Under the pieces are notes generated by a model. That model was not told the DNA's origin. It saw nothing but the letters and a program-made list of their open reading frames with translations, and ran no database searches. From the NCBI GenBank assembly GCA_001724265.1, contig MEDY01000129.1, positions 1-64,000 on the forward strand: a stretch of 64,000 nucleotides of DNA. The letters are read 5' to 3'. Positions 1-48,399 of the stretch are shown in pieces. Both the position numbers and the translations under genes were made by a program. Each line of letters opens with the position of its first letter. The stretch's first letter is position 1. The DNA comes from Rhizaria sp. SCN 62-66 (taxonomy: Eukaryota).

Positions 1-2
1 AT

Positions 3-953
3 AAGGAGGCTCTGGAGACTGAACTAGCGAAGATTAAAGCAGATGAATAGGCTAAGGCAAAGGCAGTGGAGGAGGAGGAGGCTCGACGTCGAGATGCGCC
101 GTGGGTTACTTTATTGAAGTCTTCTGCGTGGGAGGCCGAGTTCGACACGCACATTGCGTGTGCTCTCGAGGAAAGCGGTTACCCGCGACGGATCGATAGT
201 TTGTGGGAAGCGCTTCCAGCCCCTGTGCGCAAACTTGGCGCGCCATCGTTAGTGGTACTTAGTGCGCTGCAAGAAAAGGCGCGTGATCGCATCTTGTCTC
301 ACCAAGCATCAACTCCACAGATAAAATCTCATCCGGATTTAGTAATGCAGGCACGCTTTCGTGACCCTTACAGGCAAAAGAGTGTGGAATACCGCATGGT
401 AGTTCGGCTTGATGATGCAAAGTTTCCCGCGAACGCCGCCCATTTTCGCGTCGCTGCGAGTCCCTACAACTTGGGTAAATTAGTGCACCAATGTTTTGTA
501 CCACCTGGTCAGACTGCAGCAACAATGCCTTTTGTCACGCTCTACCACCATGGTTCTAAAGTGTTATGCAACAAAATGCCTGTAATGCTGCCTGACGCGG
601 ACATTGTATATGGAGAATATACAGCACCTGGTGATGAAGCGGGCCTGATCTATCCAGTCGGCTCAGTGCTCGTTTATCCGCGCTGTGTAGTACCTTCTCA
701 AAGCTCGCGTTCCCGTGACACACCTGTATTCATCGTCTTTGAGCCCTGCGTAGCGAGTCTCCTGCGCGGTGCAGTGCCTGTCGGTCGCGTGATGTCGTGC
801 GTGAAGGGGACATCAGCGGCGAAAGCTGACAACAGTAGCATGCCATTCGATGATGCTGTGTTGCGCTGTTTTGAGCATCACTGCAGGAGTGGGAAGTGTG
901 ATAGGGATTATTTAACGTCCTCCTATTGCGTCTTCGAGAAATTTATGGAATGA
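3..953 (+). CDS. 5'-partial gene: coiled-coil followed by a degenerate cyclophilin-like C-terminal domain; in-frame TAG at 48-50
   Basis: Frame from nt 3 reads KEALETELAKIKADE*AKAKAVEEEEARRR into the 66..953 ORF; ends TGA. C-terminal region is clearly paralogous to that of 19421..21985 (FDTHIAC..ESGY, MVVRLDDAKFPANAAHFR, PDADIVYGEY, RGAVPVGRVMSCV). Confidence 0.7.
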
Positions 954-1637
954 GTCGAATGATCTATTGTGAAGCGTTTCGACGTCAATTGGTCAATAAA
1001 GTGTTGGATAAGCATTTGCATAAACATGAAAACCTTGCAACAATCACGAGCTCACTCGTTTATTCATGGTAGATGGAGGTCGCTTTCTCTCACTGCGTCA
1101 TACGCAGCGCCGAGCTCGACGTCACATTCGCCGGTGGTCTTCTTCCCACCGTCGTCAACTTTAACGCTACTATCGGAAGCAGTACCAATGTTGTTGCAAT
1201 CGTTGTCGTTGGCGTAATTGTCATCATGAGTCATCGTAGGATCAATGATAGCCGGCGCGATGTCCGATACGACGGGTGCAGTTAATGAAGGCTGCGGACT
1301 GCGAAGCGCGTGTTGTCGCACTGGTTGCGAGTCTTGTGGGGGATATTGCTGCTGAATTTGTGGCTGTGGCGCGGCACGTAACAACGGGAGCTGACGCAGG
1401 TCTCGTCTTCCAAAGGGTTGCGGTTGCAGCACGTTCTCATGTGATATCCGGGGCGTTGCCCGTCACAAACGTGGGAGCTGCGCTCTGCATAATAGCCGAG
1501 ATTGACACATTCATGCATGGCTGAAGTGGCATTTGTGATTGCCGACCGCTGTGAGCGTCTCGACCTGTATGAGTTGAGACTCGGTGAGACGAGACTGGAT
1601 GAGATGAGAGCAGAGACAGCGTGTCATTGACACCGGT

Positions 1638-2945
1638 ATGGAGGGCGTGAACGCGCACTGCGCATGTGGGCTTGAGTGCAAGGTGACGGCAGAGCCAATG
1701 TGGAAAGCCCTGGCCGCGCTCTACGAGGCATGTGGCGCGCGCGCGCGTGATGTTGATAAGCTTATCTCTACCAACGACGATGATAGCAACGACGATGAAG
1801 ACTGCCACATCAACGGTGATGGCCTTTACAACAACGATGCGATTAAATCAAACATCAGTGTTGAATTGAATAATGCATCGAAGAAGTTAAGCCCTTTTCA
1901 AACTCGAGCAATCCTAAGACTGCGTTAGGTGATAGGAGTGGCAAGAGCAATTGTAACAAGCAGAAGAACAAGAATGAACATATCGAGCCCGGCACTGTAA
2001 GCACTCCATCTATTGTTAAAACGCCAATTGAACATGTGGATCCAGCTGTTGTTGCCGTCTCGTCTTCTCCTTTCACAACAGTTGCAAGTACATTTGACTG
2101 CGGAAACTTAACCGTCACTGTTGGCGTGAAGTCGGAAAGTAGCAACCAAGGCCAGACTCGCGGATCCGGTTAGGTGTGGTTGACAGGAGGCAATCATGGT
2201 GTGGGCGAGGATGTAAACGAAAGCAAGACTCATGTGGAGTCCGACATCAACGCTAAGAACGCAGCGTCTGCTGTTGAATCAGGAAGCGGACACACAGCCG
2301 TCATCACGGTAGGCCTTCCGTCAGCACTAAACGTTGCGCCGTCTCAACACAATGCAAGTAACACCCAAACAAACAAGGACACCGCTGTGTTGCGTGTGCG
2401 TTGCAGTGTGTCGTTTCCTGACGTTGTGCAGCAGGCGCGCGCATTGCAGCTGTGCGTGGACGCTGTGGCAATCGATGTCGCTGCACAAGCCGATGCCAAC
2501 CAGCAACGTGTGCTTGCGCTGGAGGCAGAGAACAAGGTTTGGCAGAAGTGCAAGGTCGACTACGATAAGAGAATGTGTTTGCGAGAATCTGACAAAGAGT
2601 CGTTACAGAACATGCAACGCGCGTGGGAGGCTGAGAACCTGAGTTGGCAGAAGTGCAAGGTCGACTATGATAAGAAGATTAGTCTGACAAGGAGGCTTTG
2701 GAGACTGAACTAGCGCCGCACCGCCAGCAGCGAATCGCTGATGAAACATATGAAAAGGCTAAGGCTGGAGAGGAAGCGAAGGCAAAGGCAGAGAAAGAGG
2801 AGCCTCGACGTCGACACTCGCTGCCTGGGTGGGAGATATACCTACCAATGTAAGCGCAGCACGCGTAAGGCTACATTTTTCTCACAGCAAGTACAAGAAG
2901 AATAACATGCTTCGTCAGTGCGCACTTCGACACACATTTGTGCGT
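1638..2945 (+). pseudogene. Frameshifted, truncated paralog of the gene at 3..953
   Basis: 2687-2815 closely resembles nt 1-92 (aaggaggctYtggagactgaactagcg ... aaggcaaaggcag ... ctcgacgtcga); ttcgacacacatt at ~2926 matches the FDTH motif at ~141. Frame shifts near 1874-1928 and ~2680; in-frame TAG at 2171-2173. Confidence 0.55.
2521..2700 (+). repeat. Two-copy ~105-nt (35-aa) coiled-coil repeat, EAENxxWQKCKVDYDK
   Basis: tggcagaagtgcaaggtcgactaYgataag occurs at ~2540 and ~2645. Confidence 0.85.
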
Positions 2946-3139
2946 CGTAAGTCGTAAGGCTTATGAGCAATTATACTGAAGAGTTACGATATCCAGGAAA
3001 AAATGAGATGAAACAAGTTTGAAAGCTCCAAAAAAGTACACGATGCTCTATAATGTCACAACTGAAAGCTGAAGCTAAATATATAATGAATTCCTGCCAA
3101 CATAAGCGGGTGGACACATAACTTTGGCAATAAGATTGA

Positions 3140-6124
3140 TTATAAGTAAATATTGTACCACTTAATTCCGCCGTGGTAAATAGAGGCAGCTCCGTCAACG
3201 ATAGAATGAACCGCTCCTTGAAACATCTCAGCTATGGTTTGCCGCTGGCGGTTAATGTTCATTGCGGGAACGTAGGCGTAGAAGAAATACAGCTGTGTGC
3301 CCATCAATGCCACAACTGGCGCCGCTTGCAGCACAATTTGTAGCACAGAGAACAAAATGTTACGCCTAGTCACCGGCACAGTCGATATTTGCATTGCGAT
3401 CTTACAGAGAGCGTGCTGAATAGCCTGCTCACGCTCAGCATCTGTGTTATTCGGAGTCGTCTCTTGCTCTGTCTCTATGGAAACCATCTGCTTATGTTGA
3501 GTGTGCTCCGTAACCTGCACGGTTTGCTCCGGCGATAACGGCCCCGCAGTGTCTTGCGCTGTCACATTACGCACCGGAGTTCCAAGTTGAACGAGCTCGA
3601 TCTCAGCACTCGCAACACCAGCCCTGTTTTGAGAGGTTCTTCCGCCATTGACTGTCGTGCAACGCGGCTTTGCAACAGCTGATGTGGACCCAATAACAAA
3701 GTTTGCCAGCCTAAAAATACGTGGATTTGGCGTTGCAGTTGGTCCAGTAAGAAGCGCATTTAAGACATTCTCCTTCATGACAGTGTCGCCGAGTAAAAGA
3801 ATCGCTTTTTTGTTGCTTCGGTACTTTTGTTTACTGCGTATCTCTGTGTACCTAACCATCACGGCCTCACTTGCGTTGATCATGTACTCCACAAGACCCG
3901 GGTTGAAGGAGCTCACTCGCAGCATGTCGTTACTGTTATAGACAATCTCTTGCCTGATCGACTGAAGAACAACTTGTGTACACCAAATTAAACGTAAAAT
4001 GGCGTCACGTTCTTCACGGCTGCGTTTCTCGAGTTTGTAAAAAACATTAGTTTTTGTTTCATTCGGGTTGTCATTAGCTTTCTTTTTCTCAACTATCTTT
4101 CGCACTTTCAATGTGAAAAACTCATTTGTTACATTCGGCACACTCATGCGTTCCATTAAATGCGGTGACTCCTGGAGAATACTAAACACAGTCTCCAATT
4201 GAACGGCAACGCGTTCGTAAAGCTTTTGACTGGCTTTCCGCCCCACACTGCGCGCAACAATTACTGCAGCAATAAACACGACAAACAGGAAGTAAAGGTA
4301 GGGCCAGATTGCAATTAAGTACAGAATGAGGATCACGAGGAGATGAACAGCAAGACCCAGCGAGATTATGACAACAAAAAGCTCAAGAATGTACCACTAG
4401 CGTGGCAACCGTGAATGCAGCGGTGCACGCCCAAAGATTGATTTTGTGTAGATTGCCATTAGGGCCGCCGCCGACTGGCGTGTGAGCTCAATCGCCGCAA
4501 ACCCGTACCAGAGAACGACACTGAAGTTATCAACTCCCCAGCACTCATCGGCAATTGCGGCAAAGAACGCCCAAAAAGTGACAACATTGTAACAAATGCG
4601 GACAACCTTAAACACTGCAAGATAGTTTGCAAAAAACTGAAGTTGTGGTGCCAGCTGCTGTGCGTTCTTGTCCAGCTCAGCTTGCGCCGGGGTCGGCTTT
4701 GGTGGGAGCTGCCCATCGGCGGCGGTTGCACGTGATGAACTCACACTACCCTGCTCTTGAGGAACAACAATCTCTTGGTTATTGTTGTTGGCGTCTTCGG
4801 CATTGCCACCAGCATTGATATCACGATCGTCGTCGTAATCCTCAGGTGTCTCTTTACAACAACAGCAACGCAGACAGCCAATTGACTTCAACACCGCAGC
4901 CCTCACTTCAGGAACGGGATACACAAAGATGAAGAATTCAATAACCCAAGAAATGATGAATGATATAAGTGCCATCACAAGTGGTGGAAACTGCGGGTTG
5001 CAAAATGTGACTGTATCCACAAAGGTGCACTCGCCCTGCGGGGATATCAGTGCGTCAGGACGCAGGAAACACTCTTCTTGGTTAATGCTCGCAACTGAAC
5101 TGTTCCATTGCGCGAGGCAACCAGGATCGCTTTCTCCCCAAGGTGTGATATTTTCTTTGCAGACAAACCCGTCTGGACACTCTTCCTGTCCATCATAGCA
5201 CATTGGCACAATCACGGATCCGACTCTTGAGAATCGTCGCACAATGGCGCTGTAAGGCTCGTGAGGAAAGTCAGTATAGAATGGAACTCGGTAGCCCCAA
5301 TCATCACCATAGATGGATCTGGCCTCGTGCACAGGCATTGCGTAACGTGTGTTCCACGGATATGGCTCATTGTAAAAGCAGAAGCGCAACACATCGGTCT
5401 CATTATACTCGCGATAGTAGGTTGCCGCAAACTCTGGACAATCTACAGCAAAGGGTTGCCAAGAGAAGCAGTATGGCACGGACCCGCCAAGGGTTAAGCA
5501 CACCCCAAGTGTGTTGTCGATTGGCATATATCGCGTTTCCTCCGTGTCTCGACACTCGGAGCCAGCGGCGCACACACGAGTGCATATCTTCCCTAAGGTA
5601 CCTGCCACCGACAGTTCGATCAGTCCTGGTTTGCAGGGACCAGAGTATGGATTGCCGTACATGCCTTGCGGCACCGGAATGCGTTGCAGAGGCGGATATA
5701 CAACGCTTGTAGAGTTATCCTTGTCAGTATCGGAGTCGGTGTCGGTGCCGTTGCCAGTATCACTGTCGCTGCTGTTCGTTGTAACGAGGCTTGTGCCAGT
5801 ATAGTAAGCACGACTCTGACGCATTATACGACGGATGTTTTTTATAGCAAGCGTGTTATTGTTGTTTTTTGCTCCCTCAATAAGCGAGGTTATATTGTGT
5901 GTCATGTTCGGACTCGTTGTGCCACCGCTGGTGACAGTGGTGGCAGCTTCTTCTGCATCAGCATGCTCTAACTCCACTGCTAAAGCTTCCGTTGTGCGAT
6001 TGATTGCTCGAGCAGCATCTACGCGGATGTCAGCCAGCACAAGCAGGATAACGCAGAGGAAAGCGATGAATGCTGCGAGGAGCCGCGTTCGCCTTCTGAC
6101 GGCGTCGAGCGCAGCCAAGTACAT
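3140..6124 (-). CDS. ~994-aa multi-pass membrane protein with N-terminal signal/anchor and Cys-rich extracellular region; in-frame TAG at 4397-4399
   Basis: ORFs 4397..6130 and 3140..4336 share a frame and are joined by *WYILELFVVIISLGLAVHLLV, which is part of a hydrophobic helix. Many Cys and N-x-S/T sequons in the N-terminal half. The 3' end (TAA at 3140) is uncertain; a further intron is possible. Confidence 0.65.
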
Positions 6125-7774
6125 GACCAAAGCGAGCTCGTTGTTTCAATGAGACCGCACCTATAAACTGCAAACATGTGACATGATCAAAACTAATGCA
6201 TGAGAACACAACTAATCTTAGCTACGCAGATGTGTCCATTGAACTTAGGTGCTTATTAAGCGCGTAGGAGCGAGTAGGGTACATGTTTGACAGGAGAAAC
6301 AAAGGAGGAGATCGCATTTCATATCGTCCTTCATCACAGCTTTCACAGGCAATGTGACGCAGAGATATCAAAGAATATTTTTCAAAAAATTACGAGAAAC
6401 TGTTAAGTACAGTTTCAGGCTGTTGGCCACCTTTTCTACGCCAGTGTTTTAGTTTGAAGCCATTACGATTGACTTCAACGAGAAACGATATCTTGCTGAC
6501 CCCTCCTTAAGTGCAACTTTCTGAGGAATATAAGGACATATTGTTTCATAGTAAGAGTAATTGAGACGAAAAACAATTCGAAATATTTATTTGTCACTAA
6601 AATGCTGAACTACTCTGTCAAAACGTTGATATTAAGACATCACAGGCGCATTAACTGATTATACGACATTTAGTGTGAGGAAAGTGACTGTGAGCAGTTT
6701 CAGAGTTCTGGAGCTCTACGGAACAAACCGATGGAATTGGTACCACTTTGGTGCAATTCATGATAAAATAATAACTTAATGCAAATCGACATTTTCCACC
6801 TGGATATGGATCCTCTAACTCTAACACACACATCCAAACTATGACAGTGAAAATGCAGACCGGCGACACAAGGGCGCAGTGCGTGAAAGGTAGAAAAATG
6901 TGTTAGTTTGATTTATTATTATATGTATCATCGCAATTCTATTATGCTTGTTGCAAAGGACGGAAGTCAATATATTATATATAAAAACACGCATTCGCAA
7001 ACCCCACGGTATACATACACATCGATCATATGAGTGTGACGGCGTGTCATCATTCAGAGTCCGGATGCATACGAGTAGAGTGAGTTTGCATGAGACGTGG
7101 TGCATCTAAAGTAGGGACAACGCCGCGCTCACGCTCCGCCCACAGCCAGGCTCACAGCCACTATCCATCGCACGTGCATTACGGTTTGTGCTGACAGTGC
7201 AGTGATGCAGTGAGTGAAGTGCAGCGGGGCGGGTGATGCGGTCAGTCGGTCAGAGAGACAAGATAGAGGGCGCAGGAGGGGAAATGCTGCGGGGGCGTGT
7301 CCAAACGGGACTGCCGCCCCCGGCCCGGCCTGGTCCGGCCCTGGACTCATGGGAGAGGACTCGGCCTCGGCCTCAGACTCGAGAGACTCGAGAGGCTCGG
7401 ACTGCAGAGCGCTCGCCGGAGTGACAGACACGCAGGCAGAGCGGAGCAGTGAGTGGAGTCGACAGTAATGACGAGAGAAATGAGGTAACAGAGAACATAC
7501 ACACAAAAAAAACGGAAACCACTTAAGGAGAGGAAAAGAAAGGAAGATTCTGAGTCTTTCCTTCTTTTCAGATCACATTTAAGCACGACAGAGTGCGTCA
7601 CATCGACTGAAGGCTAACTTGATTATATAAACATACTTATATAGAAGGGAGAAAAAAACTAGACAAACAAAAGGCACTCACTCGAGTGCATGGGGAGCAC
7701 GTGTAAGAGAGAGAGAGAGAGCGCAACAGAGTGTATCTTGTTGAGTTGTCGGGTGTAAGAGCTGATTTCGCTGC

Positions 7775-8638
7775 TTACGCCTGAGCCGCCGCCTGCTTGG
7801 CAGCCTGCTTCTTCTTGAAGTCGTTGATAGCGGCCTTGACGGCGTCCTCAGCCAGCATCGAGCAGTGAATCTTGACGGGCGGCAGCGAAAGGTGCGACGC
7901 GATGTCCGTGTTCTATCGAAGCAACAGGCAGCAGTGGAGACGCAGAAGAAAGGGGAACGGAAAGGATGAGGTGAGTTGGGGTTGATCATTGGAGCGCGCG
8001 AGAGAGAGAGCAGTTGGCAGTGTGAGAGTGCGACGAAGGAGAGTGGCAGAGTAGGGGAATGAGAGAGTGTGCGCGCGTACCTTGAGGGCCATGGCCTCGT
8101 CGACCGTCTTGCCCTTGAGCCAGGTGGTGGCGTAAGAGGAGGAAGCGATAGCGCTGCCGCAGCCGAAGGTGCGGAACTTGACGTCCTCGACAACGCCGTC
8201 GTCGCTGATCTTGACCTGCAGCTTCATGACGTCACCGCACGCGGGGGCGCCGACCAGGCCTGCGAGGGGGCGCGGAGGGAGGCGAAGGGGAAGTGGGGAC
8301 GTGAGTGTGCGGGGTTTGGGGAAGCAGAGAGTGAGGCGGGACTGACTAACCTTAACACCAATATTGACGGCGAAAGTAACGATGGCAGAAAGATATATCC
8401 ATTCTGGCAGTTAAAAACAAGTTCGAAAATGACAGATTCACGTACCAGTGCCGACACTAGGGTCGTTCTTGTCGAGGGAGCCGACGTTTTGAGGCTTCTC
8501 GTAATGCTCGATGACATTAGGGTGGTAGCTGCGGCGAGGAGCGGCGACCAGGGGAGCCACAACGCCCGCACGCACGACGCCAGAAATAGTCGTGCGAAGC
8601 ACCGAGGTGCAAAGCTTCTGATGAACCTTAGAAAGCAT
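7775..8638 (-). CDS. ISCU: Mitochondrial Fe-S cluster scaffold IscU/Isu1; exons 8638-8446, 8259-8081, 7912-7775
   Basis: YHPNVIEHYEKPQNVGS, GLVGAPACGDVMKLQ, FRTFGCGSAIASSS, LSLPPVKIHCSMLAEDA; GT-AG introns; total length 510 nt, in frame; TAA stop. Confidence 0.97.
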
Positions 8639-9097: not shown

Positions 9098-12000
9098 ATG
9101 TCGTCCTCGTCTGGAACGCGATTCAGCCCGCGTAGCGAAGACAACTCCGCATCAGACGCAGCAGCCACCGCAACGGCAGCGCTCAAGGCAAGCCTTGCGC
9201 AACGCGTTAACAAGGCCGGCAGCAAGCGGTCCAGCCAGTTGGACGCTCATGCAGCCGGATCCAAGAACCGCGACGATGAGCTTGAGAGCAGCGCCCAGCG
9301 CTTCGTGCGCTCCACCTCCATCGACTCCGCTTCAACCTCTACCTCAACTTCTAAAGCGCTCACAGCCACCCAATCCGCCTCCCGCGCGCTCACGCCGCCG
9401 CACCACACCCTGCGGTCGGACGCGGGCTTAGACGGGGTTGTGGAGACGCTGCTCTCGTTCCGCCGCCACCAGCACACGTACATGGGATACCGCGCGAACC
9501 ACCTCTCGCAGGGCGCGGTCGCACTGCTGGCGCTCGCTGTCCCCTCGCAGCTCGTCACCGCCTGGGCCGCGGGGTACCGCCGCAAGCTGCTCCCGGCCGC
9601 GCCCGAGGCCCCCGTCAGCGTCGGCAGCGGCTCTGGCTCTGGCACTGGCTCTGGCTCTGGCAGTGGCAGCGGTAGCAGTGGCAGTGGCACAGGCAGTGGG
9701 AGCGGCAGTGTTGCTGGAGGAGCGCGCGCTTTAACGCGGGGATCCTGGCGCGGCGCAGCGGGGCGGCGCAACGCATTCCGCCCACTGTTGCGCTTCTTCG
9801 AGGGCGAGATGGGCCGTCGGGAGGCGGCAGCTCGGCTAGCAAGGCTCGAGAACAGTAGCAGTACCAGTAGCGGCACTGCAGCGCACAGTGAGGCTGAGGA
9901 CGATGATGAGGAAGACTTTCGGACCGCCTGGGAAGGACTAGTTGCTGAGGTACGACTTTGAATTTATAAATTCTTTTGATTGATGTAGCATAATTGAAAT
10001 TCAAGTCAAGAGTCTAACGTAGCTCGCTTCTTGTCAATCCTACCCTTCCTTGCGTAGTATCTGCCGTTACTGTCACCGGGCTTTATGGGTGCCGTCACGC
10101 ATCCGCTGATTCAGACTGGACTTGCTGCTGTTGTTTTGCGCCGCGCCGCACTTGCCGCAGCTGCTGCCCGCGCCACTGCTGCCTCCGCAGCTGCCGCTGT
10201 TGCTGCCATATCTACCGACGCTGAAGCAGACGCTCACGCTCCCGCTGCCATCAACGCTAGTGCAGAGTTCAGCGCAGCGGCCAACATAAAGCCCGCCCAA
10301 GAGACTCCTAACAGCGGGCGCAGTCGCTCTGTTGTTAAGAAGAGGCTCACCAGCGGCGACTACCAACACTTGCCGTATCAGAACTCACTCTCGCTCTCAC
10401 AGTCGAACTCACAGTCACACGCTCCCGACCCAGAGCGCGCCGACATCAGCGGTACTAACCGTGAGCAGCGGGCGACGCTGGGTCCGCCGCCGCCGGTGCC
10501 GCCGCGTCCCACCAGCCGGCCTCGTCCGTCCAAGAGCGGCAGCGCGTCTAAGGGATCGGCCGTGGGGTCTAAGGGGGTGACCGTGAGCAAGGGCGGGTAC
10601 AGTCCTCTGTCAGACACGGCGCCCAGCGACAGCGACGATGAAAACCTGTACAGTGATGTCGAAGACCAGAGCAAAAGCAGCAAAGACATTGTTAGGGGTG
10701 GCATGAGTGCAAAGAGCAAGGCCGTGCATGTCGACAGCGTGGACAGCAGTCGTACTCTGTTCAGCCCTGTTGCTGGCGCGACTCAACCATCGACAGCGAA
10801 CAGCGCTGCCATTGCAATTGCGCCAGCTGCTGTGTCTGCCAGCGCCCACGCTGCCGCCGCGGCGGCCGCTGCTGCTGCAGCCGAGGCCGCCGCTGCCGAC
10901 GCCTTTGCACTGCGCGCCGCCGGCCGCGCAATGCTGATCGAAGGGCTGGCGTGGGCTGCGGACGAGTTTATGCCAATTACGGCTGCTAACGGTCACTTTG
11001 CGGCCCACAGTGACTACTCTGCGTTTAACCACGCTGGAGTCGGCAGTGTCGCTCCTGGTTACGAGTCAGCTCTCGGTCAAGATACAGCTGCTCACGGTCA
11101 GTTGTCCGAGCACTGGGACGCGGGGATTGCGCCGTATCCAACCTCGAACACACCACACAGCGCCAACGCTAAGAGTAGCGCAAGTGCTAGCAGTCACAGC
11201 GATGATGATGAGGACGATGACGCACCTTTAGATGCGCCAGAGTCAGTACTCGGCAAATACATGGGTGCACGCAGCGGCGACCTAACGCTTGCAGCAGACG
11301 CTGACGCAAATTTGAGCGCGGCTGCAAGCTGTGCAGAAAAGCCTTCAGTGGCGCGCGCCAGCACTACGAGCAGCAATGCGGTATCTCCTGACGCTGAACT
11401 TGAGATCGCCACCAACGCTGCTCTCTCAAACCACATCAACACTCGCAACAACATTGAAATCGATGCCAAGCAGACTACCGCTGATTCTGCCTCGACTGCG
11501 ATGTCACAGCGGAGTGTCGCCAGTATCTTGCGCTCAAACAGCTTGGCTTGCGCGGCTGGTTTGCCAACTTACACAGGTCCTCTATCGGTGCCTACTGCAT
11601 TGGCGCTGTACGACCGCCTCTCCGCGTTATACGTGGCCACGTTTGCGGAGACAATGCAGTTTTTTACGCAAACTGAGCTCTCACCGGTAATGCCGGCGCC
11701 CACAGTGAGCGCCACAGCTGCTGCAGTGACTGCGCCGACTCCGATTGCGGAGGCGTTGTTCGAGAGGACGCACTTCGACAAGGCCAAACTAAGCAGCTCG
11801 AGTCGCATTTTAAGCGCAAAGGCGAGCAGCGCGGGCGCTGACAGTATTGCGGCCTCAGCAACTGGCCACGCCTCTGTCCCAGTGTCGGGGCTGGCAGCAA
11901 GCGTGAGCGGCGGCGCAGGCGCGCTTGCAATCTCCGCCGACTGTCGCCTTGCGCGGCTGCGGCGGCGCGCGGCGGCCGCGCCGTACAACCAGCACCCGTC

Positions 12001-19342: not shown

Positions 19343-19420
19343 GACGAGAGCGATCGCGGCGAGACGGTTCTGCAGTGAGACGTCTCTGCTCTGAGCGCCA
19401 GTGGAGCTCACCATCGTCGT

Positions 19421-36134: not shown

Positions 36135-36867
36135 GCGAGCGTGTTGTTGCGACGATATTTATGGCAGAAGCTGCTATATCAGCTAGGGCCACATCGTTAC
36201 ATGCAACAAACCATTGCGAGCTGAATGCTGCGACTCGGAATACACATTTCTGGTTTTGGACAAAAACATGCACCACCCTTGTGGCGATGAAGATTTTATT
36301 TACATAGGTCTTGTTTAGAAGCTTGCAAAGGTCTCTATTCAGTTCCACAATGCATCTTGAGCTCAGATTGAGCATGAATTTTCTTACTTGTCGTCCGAGT
36401 ACAACACGCGACCATTCTTAAAATAGGACAGTGGGTTCAAGAGGCAGAACAAATTTACGTGCAGAGCCATAGCAGACAAGATGATTACAGTCAGTTGCCA
36501 AATATGTCTGAGAATCAACTTAAAAAGAAAAAGAGCCGTTGCGATGCTCACAGTCGCAGGTTCGTCGTCGGAGGGATCAGGATTTATGACGGCGAATTAC
36601 AAGATCTTTATCCAATTTTTGCAAGAGAAACAATTATGCCAACTTGATCATGAAACAAAGTAATCAGATTTTATTATCTTCAAGTTGATATCAGAGTTTA
36701 TCGTGTGCATCAGACCTCACGAGCGACACGTTTCCATCTCCTTGTCCACAGTCCATCCCACTTCACTCGCACGCATCCCACGGCGTTCACCAACGCTCTC
36801 TTCAACCCCTGACATCTTCCGTGTGCAGACACGTTACAACTCTGTTCCGCACGCCGCCGCACAGCCG

Positions 36868-37662
36868 ATGATGGGCGCCGCTTCCTCCCGCGATGACGAC
36901 TCCCCGCTCTCCCCCACTTCGCACTCGCCGCCGCCCACGCCGCCGCCGCCCAACGACACGACGCCGCGTCCCCGTGCGCCCCGCGTCCCCGCGCCAAACC
37001 CATCGGCGCCCGCTTCGCAATCCGCGTTTACCACGCCTTCTGGTGACGTGAACTTCTCCCGTGCGCCCGCTGCTGACGACGCTGCAACGCTGCCTGCACG
37101 CCCCTTAGCCTCCGCCCCGGCCTCAGCCTCTGCCGCAGTCTCCGCCTCTGCCTCTGTCTCGGCTGCCACTGCGGCGCAGCCCGACACACGCGCCGTCACC
37201 GCGAATATGTCCGCTGCTGAGATCATCGCACTGTTTACCGAATCAGCGCGCGCCCGTGACGAAGCCAGCGCACAGCGTGACAGCGGCCAACCCGTTGATA
37301 CGCTGCGGCTGCATACAAGCGCACAGCAGACAGGACCCTTTGTTGGTACTAGCGTTGAGGCGCAGGTTCCTTTAACAGCGCCTCTGCTCGTGGGCGTTGG
37401 CACACTGGGCGTTGGCATCGGCGCTATGCACACACACGCTGGCCGAGACTCGCTGCCACACGGTGACCGTGCTGTCGACAAACCCGCGGTTCATGACTGC
37501 GGCCAGTGCAGCCGCTGCGGCGACTGCGTGCACGAGTCCGACGGCACGCTGTCGCTGCAGGCGTACCTCGCCACCGCCGCGCCGCCGCCGCCGCTGCTGC
37601 CGCCACGCGCGGCCAGTCTCGATGCCCCGCGCGACTGTTGCGCTCCACTCCTCGCACTACTC

Positions 37663-37693
<31 letters not shown>

Positions 37694-40600
37694 TTCTGCC
37701 ACAGCAGCAGGGCGACACCGCTGGCGGCAGCGCGGCTCTGGCCCCGCTAGACACACTGCTCAATCTCAACCGTGAACGTGACCGTGAGCACGACCGCGAG
37801 CGAGAGTTCGAGCAGGAGCGCCAGAGGGCGGCTGAAATCGCGCGCTTTCACGACATTATGCGCGTGTTGCGGCGCGAGGCTGCACAGCTGCGCGGCGAGC
37901 GCAGGCAGCTAGACGGCGGACAGAACGGGGAACCCTTAGATCTGAGGCTTGCTGCTGTAGCAGGAGGGTACCTAGACCCTGCCGAGCACTTACAGTTCGA
38001 CAGGCGGCCTCACATGACGCAACATCACCAGCAACAACAACAACAAGGACAGCAAGAGCAGCCGCAAATGTATCCGCATATGCAGTTACCGCAGCATGAT
38101 GCACAGTTGCAGCACGGCCAGTTAGTGGGCGACCACTTACACCGAGTGCATTTGCAGCACGCTCACGCGCTTGATGAGCAAGAACACGCAGCGCAGCTTC
38201 TGCGTGAACGGAATGTTCAACTTGTACACAACAGCAACAACAAGAACGAGATCGCTAACAGCACGAGTAATGCAGCAGCCAGTGCAAACGTACCGGCTGA
38301 TGTAACGAACGCTGCACACGTACTAGCAAAAGCCTCAGCTCTTCCGCCGGCTATCTCCGCTTACTACGGCGTGCGTGACCCCGTGTACAGCACGATGAAC
38401 AGCGGCATTCGCGAGACAATGCGCGACGCGGTGCGCGACGTCGAGGAGGACTCGGCGGGCCGCAGCGACGCTGCGGTCGCTGTGTGGAGCGCGCGCGAGG
38501 GCACGCCGTGGACCCACCACGAGAGTACGTTTGCGACATAGACGTAATATTGAAACAAGTTTGAAACTCATACGTTAATCAAACACTAGACTTACACTTT
38601 GTCTTTATTTCCTTGTTTTTTTGGCAGCCGCCGCACTGTTGCACCTGGCGGTCTGCCATGAGTTCTCAGCAAACGCAATGTGTGCTTTTTTGCGCCGCAC
38701 GCGTGCGGACATCACCCAGGTACGCCGTCCGACGAGCAGTAAAATCTATCTCAAGCCATCGATCTCACAAACCTAAAGTCTTAAAACACTTAGCTAACGC
38801 CTTTTCCTGTCACTCTCCCTTCGTCATCACTCTAGCACCTGACACACTTGCTGTGTGCGCTCGCCATCAAGGTCCCCGTCGCTGTCCCCATTCCCCGCAC
38901 CGTCACGCCCACCCTGTCGCCCGCAGTCGCGACAGCGCCCGCGCAAGCTGCCGCCGCTCCCGGACAGACTGTGGCGCGTCCGCTGCGGCCTGCGCCGTCG
39001 CCCGCGTGCGCGTTGTCTCCGCCGCAGCTGATCGCTCCGCGCCCGGTCAACGCGACCAGTGCACGGACAGCGAGTTTTGCTGCTGCAGGCGCAAGTAGCG
39101 GAGACTCGCCTGCACTCGCGGCAGCCGCTGCCGGTGCGACACTGCTGCCGCAGCTGCCGCCGCTGCCGCCGCACTTGCAAACGCTGCAGTCGCTGTCACC
39201 GATGCGGTTGTCACCGTACGCTCACTCGCCGCCGTTGTTGTCAGCATCAGCAGAGTAGTCCCAAGCGCTGCCGCTGACGCTAGCAGCGCCGTCGTCGCAG
39301 CTCCTGGGCCTGTCACCACCACTGTCACGACTATCTGCGGCGCCGCGGCCGCCGCCGTTGCCGCCCGCCGCCGCTGCTGCCGCACGCTTCCAGCTCGAGT
39401 CGCGGCTTAACTTCTCGCTCGCCGCGCGCTGGCCGCACTTGCGCCCCGTGTTGACGCAAATGCTTTGCCACTTGCTGCCGTTGCCGGCGCCGCTGTGCGC
39501 TGAAATCGCAGCGCTCGCAGCGCCGTCGCTGGCGCCGGGAGATGTGTTGAACGTGCTTGATGAACGCGGCCGGGACACGTGGTATAAAGCGGTTGTGCTC
39601 GATGTTAAGCCGCCGTCGCCGCCGCTGGGGAGCGCACCGGTTGCAGGGCCAGCATTGTCTTTGCTGCCACGCGGCGTTGCAGTGGGAGCCGCAAACATCA
39701 GCGGCGGCAACAGTAGTCGCGACGCAGACAGTGGCCAAGACATGAACAGTGACAGCGTTTATAGCGACTCAACGGCAACAGAGAGCGACAATGAGCATGA
39801 CAGTACCCACATGCATGTTTACAGTGACAGTCACGTGAATGAGGAGCAAGAAGACGGCAGTTGTCAGATGAGTGACATCAATGACACGCGACGCACACGT
39901 GGCACACATAAGTTGAACAACACCAAACATAGTCGTTTCGTCCCCGCGACAGCTGTACTAAGTCCGCGAGCACGGCCCAACCGCGCAACAACATGTGCTG
40001 CGACTAAAAACATTCGGAACCATAGTGCACCGGACCTAGCTGAGGAAAGCGTCTCGCGTGCATTTGATAATCTCACTCAAGGCCCCAACGTTGCGCTGCC
40101 GAACAACCACACTCGCCAGTTTGCCAACTTGCGCGTGCTTACCGCCGCAATATTCCCAGGCATGGCCGCTGAGACGGTGAGGCTTGCGGCCTCGCTGTCG
40201 GCCGCAGTTGCAGAGGCCGCCGGGCCGCATGTCCCGCCAACACAGGCACACCCTCAAGGACTAGAGCATGGGGTAGCACTTCACGACAAGCATCAAGCAG
40301 CCGCTACCACAGCGCCAGCAGCAACGCCAGCGACGACGGCTGCAGCGCCTGACGCTAACGACGGCTGCGTGGACGTGGTGCGCATTGCACTACGCATTGC
40401 AGCCCGCCACTCCCTTCCGCCGACGCCCGCAGTGCTTTTGGCGCTCGTTCCCGCTGCGCTGACTCTGATGGCGCACCGCGCCGCGCGGCTGGCGGCGTTT
40501 GGCGGCGCGGCGCGCATGCCGGTTACCGACGGCCCCGCAAGCGTGGCGGACGGGCCTTGCGCCTGCGGCGGCGTGTGCGCGGCCGCGGTGGGCGACGTAA

Positions 40601-43600
40601 GCGCGGCGGCGCGCGCTGAGGCCGAAAGCGGCCCAGTGTGTCCGTGGACGCAACGGTTTGCTCTGGTGCACGAGGCGATGACAACTGCGCCCAGTGCGTG
40701 GGGCTGCGTATTCGACACGGTGCCTTTGCGCGGGCAACAGCAGCAACAACCGCAGCAGCAGCAACAACAGCAGGTGCAGCGACTTGTGCCACTTGCTCTT
40801 GAAGACAACGTCGCACCACCGCGCGCGCTCGCACACGCACAAGCACAGGCGCAACATCAGCACGCGGAGGGCCAGGCACAAGCTCACGGCCACAACTTAG
40901 AGCCCCGTCAGGCGCGTGGCCCCGAGCCCGACTTGGCGGGCGCGCGCCGTCAACTCTACCCGGGCGCGGCAGTCGCCCCGCTCCGCACTGGCGGCGGAGG
41001 CGGTGCGGTAAGCGGAGGCATTGCGCTCGTGCAACAACGCCTGCAAGACGCGGCCGCGGCTGAGAGCACGTCCGTCATGGTCGCGCGGGTCATCATCGAA
41101 GAAGAGGCAGCGCGCGCGGCGGACCGCGCAAGGCGCAGGCTGGAGCGCAGGGCGGAGCGCGTGCGGCGCGGTCGGCCGTGGGGCCGAACAGTCGCGATGG
41201 GCGCGTACGGCATGTATGGGAACGTCTTCAATGGTAAGTTTACAACATGAACAACATATCAACTCACAAATGCCCGGTTCAAATGCAAAGTCTATCCCTC
41301 GTCTTAACACTTGATCACCCACACCCCACACAACATTTGTTTTTTTATTTATAGAGGTACTGAGCGTTCGTCAGCAGCGCTCCTCTTTACGGGAAGGGCC
41401 GTACGACGCTTATACGACGCCTGCAGCTGCGCTCGACGAGGCCGCCCGCGTCACTGCGCTGGGCCATGCAGCGCAAAGGCTTGCCCTATGGGAGCGAGTC
41501 GAAACGCGTTGCGAGCAGGAAGCTGCTGCAGCAGCGCTTGCAGTCATGGCAAGCCACAACAGCGCTCGTGATGACACTTGTGGTCACAGCGAACACCTGT
41601 ACTGCTGTCCCGCAGCAAGCGATTGTAAGCAGTGTGATGACTGCGGCTACGACCACCTGGCGCCCGTGTCGGCCGCTTTGCGCGCGTTGCTCTGGCGCCT
41701 GTTGCCGCCACCCCCACGCTACGCTGCAGACACAACCCTAGAAGCAAACGCGCACGCGAGCGACGCGATCATGCAGAGTAATAACAGTGCGGTTCAAGGT
41801 GGCGTCACATCCGCAGCCGCCTGTTTTGCCGCCGCATCTGCCGCCGCGTCATCCCCGAGCTTGGCAGTAGCTGCGGCGCTTGCGTGCGCTGCGCTGCCTC
41901 AGGCACGTCGCAGCGGCGCGAGCGCAAACGCTGCCGCGGACGAGGGCCCTGCGTCATGGCTCCGGCGACGTGCGTGGGCAGTGGTCGAGTACACCGACTT
42001 AGAGCGCCGCATCGACGCCGCGCTTGACCGCAAGCAAGCGCGGCTGCAGACGCTGTGGACAAAGCTCGGGCCTGCGCTACAAAGCACACTTGAGAGCAGT
42101 AATCTTTGCAGGAGCGCGGCCGCGGCGTCGGGCAGCTGTACAGAGGAAGGCGACACTAGAGAGAGCGAAAGCGTAACACTGTTTGCGCAGCTAAGCATTT
42201 CAAGCCCGACCACGCATCAACAGCAGTGCGGTGCAATGCCGACTATTGCCGCGTTTCCAGTTGCGGCTGCGCTATCACCGGCGTCATCACCGCAGGGCTC
42301 CCCTGGCACTGCGCTGTTTGCCGGCTCTGCCAGCTCGGCTGGGTCTGCAGGCTCGGCAAGCCGCGCAAAGCGGAAACGCATGGAGACCCCTGACGCCAAA
42401 CATACCAATTCTGCACTGACTAACGGCAATGATGCGCAGACTGGTAGTCGTGGTGCCAACAATCGCGTTGCCGTTGATGATCGCAAGTATTCCGACCAAG
42501 ATAGCAACAGCGACAACAGCACACCGCCAAGCGCGCATCACACTCGTGGCAATGTGAAACTTTGCCAGCAGCAGCCCAAGAAAGAGAGGTCTTACGCAAA
42601 AGACGTTATCAGTGGTCCCAGGGCTCATGCAGCAGGGGCGGACGAGAGCAGCTCGCTTGCCGTTGGTGCTGCAGCAACGGCAACCACAGGCGCCGACACA
42701 GTTTCTCCGTTTCGCGGACCGTTTGTCAAGCGCAGCACAGCGTACACGCGCCCCGGTGTAGCGTCTGCTTGCGCTAGCGCTGCCAGCGTTGAAGCAGACA
42801 CTATGCACAGCCAAACAGGCGCGTGCGCAGGCGCGTGCGCAACAACGCCTCCGCTAGTGCCCACACTGAGCGGCGTCTCTGTGGCAAATGCCGGCGATAT
42901 GGGGCCAGTGTCTGCACCACAGTTGCCGTCACAAGCGCAGACCCAAGCGCCTGCACTTGAGCTTAATGCTGGCAATGGCAGCCATTCTGTTCCAGCTGCA
43001 AACCCCAGTCGTCGTGAGCAGGCGTTAGCGTCGCGCTTGCGCGAGCTTGCAGCTGCGTTCGCCAACTTAGAGCATGCCAACACGCAGCAACAACAGTTAA
43101 CTCGTGATACAGCCTGCTCGCAGCAACTGCAGCAGCAGCAACAGCGCCAGCGCGCGCTCCCGCTCTTCTGGCCCGACTCAACTCTCGCTCGCCGCTACGG
43201 CCCGCCGCTGCCCATGCCAGCAACAGCAGCGGCCAGCGCGCCCGCAACATCTTCCGCTCATTACGCAACCGGCGCGCCCGTTCCCGGCGTGTGCGCGCCG
43301 CAAGTGCGCGTGCACTACCTCGGCTGGGGGCCCAAGTGGGACGAGTGGCTGCCCACGCCCGCGCCGCGCGTGGCGGGGCCCGGGGCGCGGACGGCCGCGG
43401 GCGCGCGCACGGGGCCCGACGTAAGCGCAAGGCCAGCGCACGTGGCGGCGGCGGAGAGCGTGGCGCGCGCGGAGGCAGTGTTTGCAACGCAGGTGCGCGC
43501 GCACGTGCTCAGCGCAGCGCTGGCGACAGAACATCAAGAGCGACGTCAGTATCTTGCGACCAATGATGATGGTGTCTTGGGCCGGAGCAGTGCAGACAAT

Positions 43601-45250
43601 GAAAGTGACGTAGACAGAGGCGCAAGTAGCAACGACGCTTTGCCCGTATCTATGTCTGACAGTACTACGCGACATCATCCTCCGTATCAACTCAGGCAGC
43701 TTGGCGATATGCAACTCCTCGCAGCTTACATAGATAACAATGACACAAGAGCAGTTGCTACGGACACTGCTGCGCAGTCATCTGATTCCGACGTGGCATT
43801 TCTGTCACGCGCACATCAAAACACCACCAACAGCGCTGCTTTGTCACCCACACTCTCTCGCATGCACTCTTTTACAGCATCAATTTCAAGCAGTCTGAGT
43901 AGCTCTGACAGCGACAACGATAGCGACAACGAGGAGTCCAGTGACAGCGATCACACTGGCTCCGAACCTTACTCTGGTTACGACGCAATTCACGCATTTG
44001 GAGGCAGCGGCTACGGCCATGACAGCGACGACTCAATTCCTCTCACACCCGTTGACGCGAGCACATCGACTGACACTCCACAGACGCCACCCCATCGCCG
44101 CAGCCGCAGGGGCCGCGGCGTGCTGCGCGACGAAGCCACCGAAAGTCGCTTGCGGGAGGGCGCACGGAGCAACTACCGCGCACTGGCGCTGGCGCTGGCA
44201 AGCCCTTCCCAGACGGCTGCGATTACATTGAATCTGTCAGCCGCAACAGCTCTGCGTAGCTCGGCAGCGGCGGTGCAGAGCGCGCTGGGCCCGCCGCTGC
44301 CACGTTTCTCACACGGCAACCCGCTGGCTAATAGAGTCGGTTTTGGCGCTGGCGCTGGTGCGAGGGGTGAGAATGGCGACACAGACAGTAACGAGTCCGA
44401 CAGCGTGAGCGAAGGGGACATCGAGGGCCTCAGTCAGCGGTACAGGCTTCCCCCAACGCGCGACTACACAGCGCTGGCCGCCGCAGCTGTTGTTTCCACT
44501 GCAGCTGCCGCTCGGAGTCACGCTGCGTCAAACCCCAGTCAAAGCGCAGCACTGACTGTGCCAGTGCACGTACCAACGCTTGGCAGTGCTGCGGATAGCG
44601 CGGCCAGCGCTCACACCAGTGGGCGCAACGCCATGACGAGGCAATGTGCAGTTCGTAGCTATCTCGCCACAGAAGAGGAGGAGGAAGAGCAACACAACCA
44701 GAACGTCAGTAACTCGCATACGCAGACTGTGCAGACTGACCACTCAGCAAGTTACGGGGCAGGCGACGAAGACGTGATTTTCACGCACGGCCAATATTCC
44801 AGCCTAGATATGGACGACTTCGATCACACGTCTGCCGCCACTCACGACGAAAACACCCTGCCCGCGCACCACAACTCACAGTTACACCCACAGTCCCAAC
44901 GATTTCCGCTTTCGCAGCCGCTTTCGCAGTCGCAGTCGCAGGCAGCAAACGCAAGCCTGACCAGTGACAGCTGGCGCCCGTTTCCCGGCGCGCCGCCGCG
45001 CCACATGGTGTGCGCCGCGGCGGTAATGGTGGCGCGCCGCATGCTGGCGGAGAGCGAGCGCGAGAAGCGCGCCGACCGGGCTCTGCGCAAGGCGGAGCGA
45101 CGCAGGCGCCGCATGACTGCCGAAGAGCTTGACGAAGCCGTTCTATCGCTGGTCGCAGCGCGGCAAATGGCAGAGAATCTATCACAGGAAAACGAGGTGG
45201 ATAGACCGGCGGATGAGTCGAGCGAAGGAGCAGAGAACTATTACAACTAA
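36868..45250 (+). CDS. ~2,680-aa low-complexity protein with a split Tudor-knot/chromo-barrel domain; exons 36868-38524, 38628-38719, 38836-41233, 41355-45250; in-frame TAG at 39256-39258
   Basis: Four exons join in frame through GT-AG introns (total 8043 nt). GDVLNVLDERGRDTWYKAVVLDV at 39538-39606; VRVHYLGWGPKWDEWLP at 43304-43354. TAA stop. Confidence 0.7.
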
Positions 45251-45438
45251 ACGACTTCGTCAAGATGGATAACGTAACTGAACCAAAATGTACTACAAAG
45301 TAATCTAATGTGATCTCGTGAGCCTCAATACGGTTGTTTGATTTTGAAAACGATGCACCAATACTGGTCCTGTAAATAAATATTGTTACGTTTATTTTTG
45401 AATTTCACTCCATCGATATGTTCGACACGCTGTGGCTA

Positions 45439-48399
45439 TCAGTACTTCGTGCCAACGCGCACCTTGTTCTTGATCACGTGCTCCTGCGTCTTCGCGAGCC
45501 CCGTCAGCGTCTTGCCGCCGCTCAGCCCCAGCATCTCGGTCGCGGTCTGCGCCCCGTACGTCGCTGCAGCCACTGCGGCCGGGGCTGGCGCCGGGGCCTT
45601 GCTGAGCTTCGACAGTGGCTTCTGCGGCAGCTGCGAGTTCAGCGCGTTTTCAATCGCCACCGCCTGCAACGCGGCTGCGCGTGCAGCGTGTGTGCGTGAC
45701 GGCCTCGCTTCTGTCGGCAGCGGTGCGGCCTTGCTGGCAAACACAGAGTGCATCCCAAGTTCGTCAAACTCGCTGACGTTAAGTGAGTGCGAGTGTGCGT
45801 CCAGGTCAAGCGCAGCCGCGCGCGCCGCGGCAGCCGCAGCCTCGCGCGCGCCCGCGCTATTTGCTCCCGCGTTCGCGTTCGAGTATGCGTTGTCTGGCGC
45901 AAAGATCGCGGCCAAAATGGCGTCCGCGGAGAGGGACTCGACCGTGGTTGCGGCAGGGCGCTCGTACACCGGCCGCTGCCGCTTGGCCAGGACACTGGTG
46001 CCTGTGCGCGCCGCGGCGGCAGCAGCGGCGACATCACTGGCCGACACCGGCACCGATGCTGAGCGTGGCGCTGTCGCGTGTGCTGCTGCGGTTGCAACAG
46101 GAGTCGCAGACACGGGCATAGAGGGCAGCACAGGCGCAGGCGCGTTGGGATCATGCACCAGCTGCACGGCGTCCATCACGACAGCGTCAGGCACACCAGT
46201 CGCGTCCGTATTAGCGCTAGTATCCGTGGCTGCGGGCTGTTGCTGCTGTTTCTGCAGCTTTTTCTTATCCTCACGCACACGCTTGCCTCCCAGCGCTTCG
46301 AGCCCCGAATGGATGAGCTGCGCAATGAGATCGCGGTCCCGCCGCGCCGCCTCGGCGTGCGGCATCACCGCCGCGCCGAACCGGTGCGCGAGCCACACGT
46401 ACAGATCCAGGTTCGAGAACGTCTCCTCCAGCCTGTCGATCGCGTCGGGATCGGTCGGAACGCCGGGACGCGTCACGTAGGTCGCCGACGGGATGGGCAC
46501 CGCGCCGCCCGCGGAGAGGCGGCGCGCGTACCACTCGACCAACACGCGCTGCGACGGGTATTTCTCCACCGCGGCGGGCGCGTAGCACAGCGTGACGCGC
46601 TGGTACGGGTCCAGCTGGATATTGTCAGTGATCGTGGCCAGCTCCAGCAGCGAGTCAAGCGAGCCCAACTCGTAGGCGTCGTCGACGGAGTGGCGCGCGC
46701 GGAGATTGTGCAGGTATGACGAGAGCGGCAGCGACGGGAAGCGCCGGCAGAACGCCAACAGATGACCTGTGCTGGGGGACAGCTGCGCACGCTGCATCGG
46801 CGGCGGCGTTGATGCGAAGACTTCCTTGAGGAACTGCAGATCGGTGTCGTGGTAGAGCGCGGTGACGGTGCCGCCACCCTCAGCCGCGGTGTGGCGCGAG
46901 CCAAAGCGGCCCGCGCGGCCGCCGATCTGCAGCGCCTCGGAGACCGTGAGCGTGCGGAACTGATCGCCGTCGAACTTGATCGTCGTCGAGAAAACAACAC
47001 GGCCGATGTTTAAGTTAAGCCCCATGCCGATCGCATCGGTCGCGACGAGGATGTCGACGCCGGAGTCGGGCTAGTTGAACAGCTCGGCCTGCAGCTTACG
47101 CACTGCGGGCGGCAGCGAGCCGTATACGATAGCGCAGCGCATGCCTGTCGCGCTCTCAATCTTGTCACGCATCGCATAGACCATGTCACGGCGGAAGACG
47201 ATCACGGCGTCGCCGGGACGCAGTTCCGAAAAATCACGCACGGGTGTGTCGGCCACGGCCAGCGGGGAGAGGCGTTCGTACCGGTTGACGTAGACGTCCT
47301 CGCCGGTGAGTTTAGCCGCGTTGAGGACCCACTCGAGCGTCGATGCGTCGCCGCAGATGTGGACTTCCTTCGCGGCAACGCCGAGGAAAGCGTTGGTCCA
47401 AGCAAACCCACGGTCTGCATCGGCCATCATCTGCCCTTCGTCGATCACGGCGACGTCGACAGCACGGTCAAACATGGCCATTTCGACCGTGGACGACACG
47501 TGTGTGGCGCCAGGCACGTCGATCACTTCCTGTCCAGTCAGCAGCGAGCACGCGACGCCGCGCGCCGTGAGACGATCGTGGATTTCCCACGCTAGCAGCC
47601 GCAGCGGGCCGCAGTACAGCCCCGACTCGGCGGCGGCGAGGCGCTCCAGCGCGCGGTGCGTTTTGCCGGAGTTGGTGGGCCCGGCGTGGACGACGATGCG
47701 CCGCTTCAACAGGCGCGCAAGCGGGAACCAGAGGTCGGGCCGCCGCAGGTTGAGGAATGTGCGCCAGTCGAGCGCCCCCACGCGCGCGCAGCGCTCGGGC
47801 AGCGCGGGGAGCGCGGCGGAGGCTTCCTCGCCGAGTCCGGCCCAGTACACGTGGTGCTCTTGGGCGGCGGACCCGGGGAACGCGGCGGCGTGCTCCGCCA
47901 TCACATCCCGCGCGAGCGCCTGCAGCGGCAGCACGTCGGGCAGCTCGGAGTCGGCGACGGCGGCCTCGGAGGCGGCCCACTCGGCCGGGGACAGCGCCTC
48001 CGCGGCCTTAGCCGCGTCAGCGACGAGCTGTGCGTCAAGCCTTGCGCGCTGCGAGAGGCGGTCACTGTTCGCGCGCTGGTGGCGCTCGTTCATCGCGGCC
48101 ACGCGCCGGGCCATTTCAGGCGTCTCTAGGGGCGCGCGCGGGAACGGGGTGTCGCGCTCGGCGTTCGCGCCGGCGAAGTTGAGGCCGGTCTGCGCGCCGT
48201 TCTCTTTCGAGGAGAAAGCTGCGGAGGCTACTGTAGTCAAGCGCGCAGTGAGGGGAGCGGAGGACGAGCATGTCGGCGCCAGCACAACGCGCGGAGCGGG
48301 CACGTTGGAAGGCATTGGACCTAACGTACTGAGAAGCTGCGGCGGCGCGGAGAGACGCGCGAGTGCCGATACGAGGCGCGGGGGCCCGCGGCTAAGCAT
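45439..48399 (-). CDS. SUV3: Mitochondrial RNA helicase SUV3; in-frame TAG at 47071-47073
   Basis: WFPLAR, HAGPTNSGKT, YCGPLRLLAWEI, STVEM, VIDEGQM, RGFAWT, YGSLPP..RKLQAELFN*PDSGVDILVATDAIGMGLNLNI, LQIGGRAGRFG, LDLYVWLAHRF. Confidence 0.95.

Follow-up and report, generated by a model that had tools for sequence, protein, structure and literature searches.

Analysis of a 64,000-nucleotide (nt) stretch of contig MEDY01000129.1, deposited as Rhizaria sp. SCN 62-66 and referred to here in its full length as the window, indicates that UAG is probably a sense codon in the genome from which this DNA derives, with UAA and UGA serving as stops. Five of six in-frame TAG codons in the window are internal to coding sequence. 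Given a real reassignment, the amino acid would most likely be glutamate (Glu), a call that we put at about even, and glutamine (Gln), which an initial annotation of the same DNA had favoured, is the main alternative at a clearly lower probability.

Results

In-frame TAG codons within genes

Coordinates of the TAG sites, their genes and the introns are collected in Table 1. A scan of all six frames of the window found only two stop triplets with at least 200 open codons on both sides, and both were TAG, at 47071 and at 4397. Reading frames were also compared by a codon-usage score, which was trained on 6358 codons of confident exons and chose the true frame in 73 of 75 training windows; at five of the six sites, this score picked the frame of the TAG both before and after the codon.

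The TAG at 47071 interrupts the gene of the mitochondrial RNA helicase SUV3, recognised in Pfam by DEXQc_Suv3 (1.8e-63) together with Helicase_C and SUV3_C. The start ATG of this gene was placed by hand count. Alignment to 11 homologs crosses the TAG without a gap and the homology reaches the C-terminus, 543 codons beyond the TAG, where the TGA closes the protein within a few residues of the end of its closest relative (P0005, 80% identical). A further SUV3 search returned no near relative (80–99% identical) that spans the TAG. At 4397, the codon-usage score indicates the same frame on both sides within a gene for a membrane protein, the N-terminal part of which is Cys-rich. Among 1.84 billion representatives, no homolog of this 994-codon protein was found except its own fragments (P0130 and P0253), and there is therefore no aligned residue for this site.

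Two further TAGs lie in spliced genes. TAG 12239 is the only internal stop of the 1601-codon model of the three-exon gene; it is followed by 47 codons up to a GTACGT donor and then, across a 103-nt intron, by a 541-codon exon in the same frame. The two predicted introns of this gene (GTACGA..GCGTAG, 108 nt, GC 0.36; GTACGT..CTATAG, 103 nt, GC 0.34) join the frames exactly. Under the standard code the site looks like a gene end, a reading that is ruled out by the continuing frame and the in-frame splice.

TAG 39256 is the only internal stop of the 2748-codon model of a four-exon giant gene, and along the exon the model frame alone contains neither TAA nor TGA. The introns at 38525–38627 and 38720–38835 (GT..AG) are removed in a contig from an RNA library (run X5), and the resulting frame is that of the TAG; the third intron (41234–41354; GTAAGT..TATAG, GC 0.37) is predicted from sequence only and joins the next long frame. 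The X5 contig is collinear and ungapped over 39006–39739 and differs from the window in six letters, so that it attests collinearity and not letter identity at the TAG itself. The strain indels listed in coding parts measure 12, 12 and 6 nt, all multiples of three; the 12-nt ones, at 42816 and 43910, are in this gene. The giant protein is rich in Ala, Pro, Ser and Gln and has no Pfam family, and its codon bias is weaker than that of the other genes.

The remaining two sites belong to a lineage-specific family. The gene that is cut by the window start and carries TAG 48 encodes a protein that over residues 43–314 has 39% identity (E 5e-59) with the C-terminal domain encoded by the gene at 19421–22003(−), and both proteins stop directly after the shared domain. 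Around the TAG, both flanks match a continuous frame at a paralog block at 2689–2826 (tblastn E 1.8e-6; MAFFT). Four of the differences between the two blocks are synonymous and at third positions, which marks this frame as the selected one. The linker of the 19421 gene does not resemble the block around site 48.

TAG 2171 lies in a tandem paralog copy, whose exon 1 (1638–1815) and predicted 113-nt intron (1816–1928) were placed by hand. The codon-usage score favours the frame of the TAG on both sides. The frame of this copy passes from mod 0 to mod 2 through the 113-nt intron and from mod 2 to mod 1 near 2683–2689, where 10 nt are missing relative to the copy's own internal repeat, and a second in-frame TAG stands in the old frame at 2711. 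Because of the frame break and TAG 2711, site 2171 was not counted among the secure five. The copy at 1638–2905 may be a decaying duplicate.

The initial annotation had placed all six TAGs inside coding sequence, which is borne out for 47071, 4397, 12239, 39256 and 48 and is doubtful for 2171, given its frame break and TAG 2711. The coordinates and strands that it gave for the six codons are correct, as are the codons that follow them (GCT, GTG, TGG, ACT, TCC and CCC). It rightly listed no more than six, several other in-frame TAGs being intronic or upstream of a start codon; TAG 2711 was not in its list.

Stop codons at gene ends

TAG is the rarest stop triplet in the six frames of the window (775 of 3607). 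None of the 16 gene ends that could be fixed is a TAG; nine are TGA and seven are TAA, and if TAG closed 20–25% of genes the chance of finding no TAG among 16 ends would be about 0.01–0.03. The GC content falls after 15 of these 16 ends, typically from ~0.6 to ~0.37, and the codon-usage score drops as well; beyond the ends with a GC fall, another stop follows within 1–45 codons. The gene ending at 19421 is the lone exception, and it overlaps another gene in antisense. Four of the six TAGs are not followed by a GC fall. Six ends are additionally backed by homology or paralogy, namely that of SUV3, those of V-ATPase subunit C, the DAO oxidoreductase and the ERV protein (at the ends of their Pfam models), and those of the gene cut by the window start (G1) and the 19421 gene (by paralogy). 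Two of the genes that stop at the ends of their Pfam models, V-ATPase subunit C and DAO, bear on the status of TAA, the codon that ends seven genes.

Internal TAA or TGA codons were found neither in the spliced models nor in the 6358 training codons, which is partly so by construction, as TAA and TGA served to delimit the frames. The same absence had been reported for intact models in the initial annotation and holds for the spliced ones. That annotation had also counted 20 gene ends, 10 TAA and 10 TGA; at least three of these (9961, 38547 and 41250) are exon ends running into introns, and what survives of the count is that TAG does not occur among the ends that are fixed. UAG is used sparingly, at ~0.36 per 1000 codons and in five or six of about 19 genes.

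Recurrence in other assemblies and RNA libraries

Contigs from another study (X3) show 0 differences from the window over 46056–48595 and 38282–39527, two intervals that span two of the TAGs. Scanning metagenomes with the SUV3 alignment gave 28 loci, among which the only close one (L001, a separately assembled 2466-base contig that is 100% identical) represents the window itself and includes the TAG of SUV3. Public protein collections contain the SUV3 and membrane-protein genes only in pieces cut at the TAGs: the frame cut at the SUV3 TAG (P0139, 477 amino acids) occurs on seven public contigs and the frame cut at 4397 (P0130, 575 amino acids) on four, the longest contig across the recurring frames measuring 97,818 bases, and a third fragment of window genes cut at a TAG is P0253 (338 amino acids).

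Runs X4, X5 and X8, from other studies, contain strains ~1% diverged from the window over 28701–48700. X5 is labelled metagenomic RNA-Seq and behaves as RNA, with spliced contigs and almost no intergenic cover. Among the listed contigs of the polyA run X8, none lies over TAG 39256 or TAG 47071.

Residues aligned to TAG

Two of the six sites are informative as to the amino acid. Among 120 SUV3 homologs, the column of the TAG holds mostly acidic residues (D 62, T 17, E 14, A 9, N 6, gap 5, S 2, H 2, K 2, Q 1, L 0), with Trp in 0 of 120; among the six closest relatives the residues are D, G, D, D, D and E, and P0005 has D. At site 48, a single-gap alignment, obtained both with MAFFT on DNA and with tblastn, sets the TAG opposite GAA (Glu) in the paralog. 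The sequence around the other four TAGs is of low complexity or lineage-specific. A single base change turns UAG into a codon for Q, E, K, L, S, W or Y; of these residues, Glu is the best fit to both informative positions, and GAG is the commonest one-step neighbour codon of UAG, at 36.2 per 1000.

The initial annotation had read UAG as probably Gln, with UAA and UGA as stops. The sense reading is upheld by five of the six sites, by the lack of TAG at all 16 fixed ends and by recurrence; the choice of Gln is not, as the SUV3 column has Q in one of 120 sequences, D in 62 and E in 14, and the paralog has Glu at site 48. The four peptide contexts on which that choice had leaned are low-complexity stretches that do not discriminate between residues. 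Aligning conserved residues to the TAG, a check that the same annotation had proposed, thus leaned acidic at two informative positions and away from Gln.

Introns, gene content and source of the DNA

Spliceosomal introns are few per gene and uniform in character, 103–214 nt long and AT-rich (GC 0.30–0.46, compared with ~0.6 in exons), with donors of the form GTACG, GTAAG or GTGCG. A CTAAC-like motif stands ~40 nt before the end in two of the seven introns listed in Table 1. TAGs that stand in frame at intron ends could pass wrongly for recoded codons.

Table 1. In-frame TAG codons, the genes that carry them and seven introns of the window.
Feature	Position	Strand	Details
In-frame TAG	47071–47073	−	~codon 443 of the SUV3 coding sequence, within the Helicase_C core; flanked by 504 and 543 open codons
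SUV3 mitochondrial RNA helicase gene	45439–48399	−	ends with TGA at 45439–45441
In-frame TAG	4397–4399	−	open frames of 582 codons before and 418 after, in one frame
Membrane-protein gene, 994 codons	3140–6124	−	ends with TAA at 3140–3142
In-frame TAG	12239–12241	+	codon 1012 of the three-exon gene
Three-exon gene, 1601 codons	exons 9098–9949, 10058–12380, 12484–14111	+	ends with TGA
In-frame TAG	39256–39258	+	codon 792 of the four-exon giant gene
Giant gene, 2748 codons	open from 36664; exons to 38524, 38628–38719, 38836–41233, 41355–45250	+	ends with TAA
In-frame TAG	48–50	+	linker of the gene cut by the window start
Partial gene, lineage-specific family	3–953	+	ends with TGA at 951–953
In-frame TAG	2171–2173	+	exon 2 of the tandem paralog copy (1638–2905)
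Intron	9950–10057	+	
Intron	12381–12483	+	
Intron	18595–18788	+	
Intron	38525–38627	+	
Intron	38720–38835	+	
Intron	41234–41354	+	
Intron	30423–30636	−	

By Pfam, the genes of the window form an ordinary eukaryotic nuclear set. The recognised products are the SUV3 helicase, Sec24, an ERGIC/ERV protein, V-ATPase subunit C, Vma12, a pyrimidine 5'-nucleotidase, a DAO oxidoreductase, an MFS transporter, a Myb protein, IscU and citrate synthase, and three of them (SUV3, IscU and citrate synthase) are of mitochondrial type. An Rfam scan of the 64-kb window gave 0 matches. The G+C content is 58.7% and uneven, varying from 0.48 to 0.71 per 4 kb: it is 0.48–0.50 at 1–8000 and 20001–24000 compared with 0.71 at 28001–32000, and the low-GC regions are where the lineage-specific family and the membrane protein without relatives are located.

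The same DNA was found in metagenome runs from bioreactors, wastewater and microbial fuel cells in several studies, and the source is therefore an uncultured eukaryote. Overall, the window is best explained as nuclear DNA of an uncultured, aerobic, GC-rich and intron-poor eukaryote. In a tree of 56 of 121 SUV3 sequences (the named ones and the closest unnamed ones were chosen), the window and six metagenome proteins form one clade of seven with a support of 100. A Choanoeca sequence is its sister with weak support (88), and Paulinella, Cafeteria and unnamed sequences branch nearby. A protein-atlas comparison of V-ATPase subunit C gave no taxonomic signal. Placement by phylogeny, another check proposed at the outset, gave a firm clade around the window and, as judged from this one protein, a tentative wider position for the lineage.

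Discussion

The window contains genes that continue through TAG in one frame, gene ends that are TAA or TGA, and contigs from elsewhere in which the same frames recur, and we regard a sense reading of UAG, with UAA and UGA retained as stops, as probable. Several observations nevertheless count the other way. A scan of the 64-kb window for transfer RNA (tRNA) genes found 0, and the sample is small: 64 kb, with 16 gene ends and about 14,000 codons. The contigs on which the frames recur are not fully independent, as related reactors, or a single data set filed repeatedly, may be their source. At 39256 the codon-usage score ties two frames in a low-complexity stretch, and the paralog copy may truly terminate at TAG 2711. 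As to the residue, the case for Glu depends on two positions, one of which is a column dominated by Asp and not by Glu, and at the other, site 48, a two-gap alternative from BLASTP sets the TAG opposite Thr in a low-complexity block.

Four other explanations of the internal TAGs were weighed against reassignment. UAG might have a dual meaning, usually an amino acid and in certain contexts a gene end, as in codes without dedicated stops. With only 16 gene ends to judge from, with TAG 2711 as a conceivable true end, and with a very low use of UAG that fits an intermediate stage, such a state has something to recommend it; however, none of the 16 fixed ends is TAG and 2711 does not lie in the frame that the two paralogs conserve, so we consider a dual meaning improbable. 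Restorative RNA editing, in which premature TAGs of the genome are altered in the messenger RNA, for example by adenosine-to-inosine (A-to-I) editing to UGG as in filamentous ascomycetes, would account for TAG alone being internal. In fungi, A-to-I editing is reported to favour an A preceded by U and to strike UAG frequently, and 71 Fusarium pseudogenes are restored in this way (PMC11156358, PMC10776026, PMC4817773). Yet editing leaves the absence of TAG at 16 gene ends unexplained, roughly one gene in four here contains a TAG compared with 71 in the whole Fusarium genome, no Trp occurs in the 120-sequence SUV3 column, and the SUV3 tree places the organism outside the ascomycetes. We therefore hold editing to be very improbable.

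Nonsense mutations in decaying genes, or errors of assembly, would suit the paralog copy with TAG 2171, which has a frame break, and several of the genes that carry TAGs are lineage-specific and have no homologs. This explanation does not fit the observation that the internal stops are all TAG, with no TAA or TGA, in five good models that have no frameshift, nor the otherwise intact and conserved SUV3, the recurrence of the same TAGs in the contigs of another study and on seven and four contigs, or the strain indels of the giant gene in multiples of three, and we rate its chances as equally slight. The possibility that none of the TAGs is translated, each being the end of an intron or part of one that was overlooked, starts from the fact that introns here often end in TAG (five of the seven listed) and that in-frame TAGs at 10055, 38539 and 30619 and one in IscU are truly intronic; moreover, a frame-keeping piece of 177 nt (GTAAGC..TAG) could excise TAG 2171. 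For SUV3 this is impossible, as the alignment is collinear. Over 4397, the sole upstream GTACG donor would yield a 112-nt piece (GC 0.59) that breaks the frame if removed, and over 39256 the only consensus-like upstream donor would yield 43 nt; neither length is a multiple of three and both pieces (GC 0.58–0.59) are far from the GC of 0.30–0.46 of real introns. The RNA-library contig is, furthermore, collinear over 39256, and the flanks score as coding. Of the explanations considered, this one appears the least probable.

If UAG is read as an amino acid, its decoding would require a tRNA with the anticodon CUA, plausibly derived from tRNA-Glu, or efficient near-cognate reading, together with an eRF1 that no longer recognises UAG, and new UAG codons would arise mainly from GAG. 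The fuller proposal, that UAG alone encodes Glu with UAA and UGA kept as stops, in a deep lineage of wastewater reactors that is at an early, low-usage stage of codon capture, is put forward tentatively, and we judge it somewhat short of an even chance.

Reassignment of UAG alone has been described before in a few lineages (Leu, Gln and Ser), and that of the window would be one more. In the fornicate Iotanema spirale, UAG encodes Gln, and UAA and UGA are stops (PMC5304391). As proposed for the window, reassignment concerns UAG alone, genes terminate at UAA or UGA and nowhere else, and the evidence is of the same type, in-frame UAGs in conserved genes and none at homology-defined ends. In contrast, 204 in-frame UAGs were counted in 126 Iotanema genes compared with five or six in about 19 long genes here; Iotanema is an anaerobic gut flagellate, whereas the window encodes citrate synthase, IscU and SUV3; and the residue in Iotanema is Gln, whereas the two informative sites of the window lean acidic. 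The mitochondrial genes, the G+C content of 58.7% and the introns of ~100 nt do not fit Iotanema. In Rhizaria sp. exLh (Sainouroidea), UAG encodes Leu and was counted 384 times across 71 genes, or 5.4 per gene, mostly where Leu is conserved (PMC5304391). This organism, too, is an uncultured protist known only from sequence with a reassignment of UAG only, and its genes end in UAA or UGA only (56 and 15, respectively); however, UAG is frequent there and means Leu, whereas it is far rarer in the window, where Leu accounts for 0 of 120 residues in the SUV3 column. The SUV3 tree speaks neither for nor against a relationship between the two.

Among other protists, UAG encodes Gln in Protocruzia and in two phyllopharyngean lineages, Leu in a phyllopharyngean clade and Ser in Scotinosphaera (PMC11687900). 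These cases resemble the window in using UAG as sense while UAA is still a stop, and those in ciliates were mined from metagenome-assembled genomes. The ciliates differ in that up to 91.1% of their genes contain UAG and in a G+C content of 27.4–53.6%, compared with 58.7% in the window, which has introns of 103–214 nt and is represented by contigs of at least 97.8 kb. The G+C content of the window does not fit the UAG-reassigned ciliates.

In the peritrich code, UAR (UAA and UAG) is read as Glu. Glu also appears in the oligohymenophorean ciliate PL0344, where UAA encodes Lys and UAG encodes Glu (PMC10553269), and in Blastocrithidia, where UAR encodes Glu (PMC12153298). All three share with the reading proposed here the assignment of UAG to Glu; in all three, however, UAA is sense as well, whereas seven of 16 gene ends in the window are TAA. 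A UAR = Glu code was considered for the window and ruled out, as TAA ends seven genes with a GC drop and a further stop soon after, and several of these ends are backed by homology. In our search of the literature, neither a code with UAG alone as Glu nor a report from wastewater eukaryotes turned up; in the texts covered, Glu is known only where UAA is also reassigned. No NCBI translation table is known to have TAG as Glu alone.

These results have a practical side, as gene calling under the standard code truncates the proteins of this lineage in metagenomes, the database entries P0139, P0130 and P0253 being fragments cut at TAG. If UAG does encode Glu, the code would be a new variant and would add a new code table. 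Different meanings of UAG and UAA are known from only a handful of nuclear lineages and bear on whether eRF1 can be made to distinguish the two codons, and a further non-ciliate lineage with very sparse UAG would show an early stage of reassignment.

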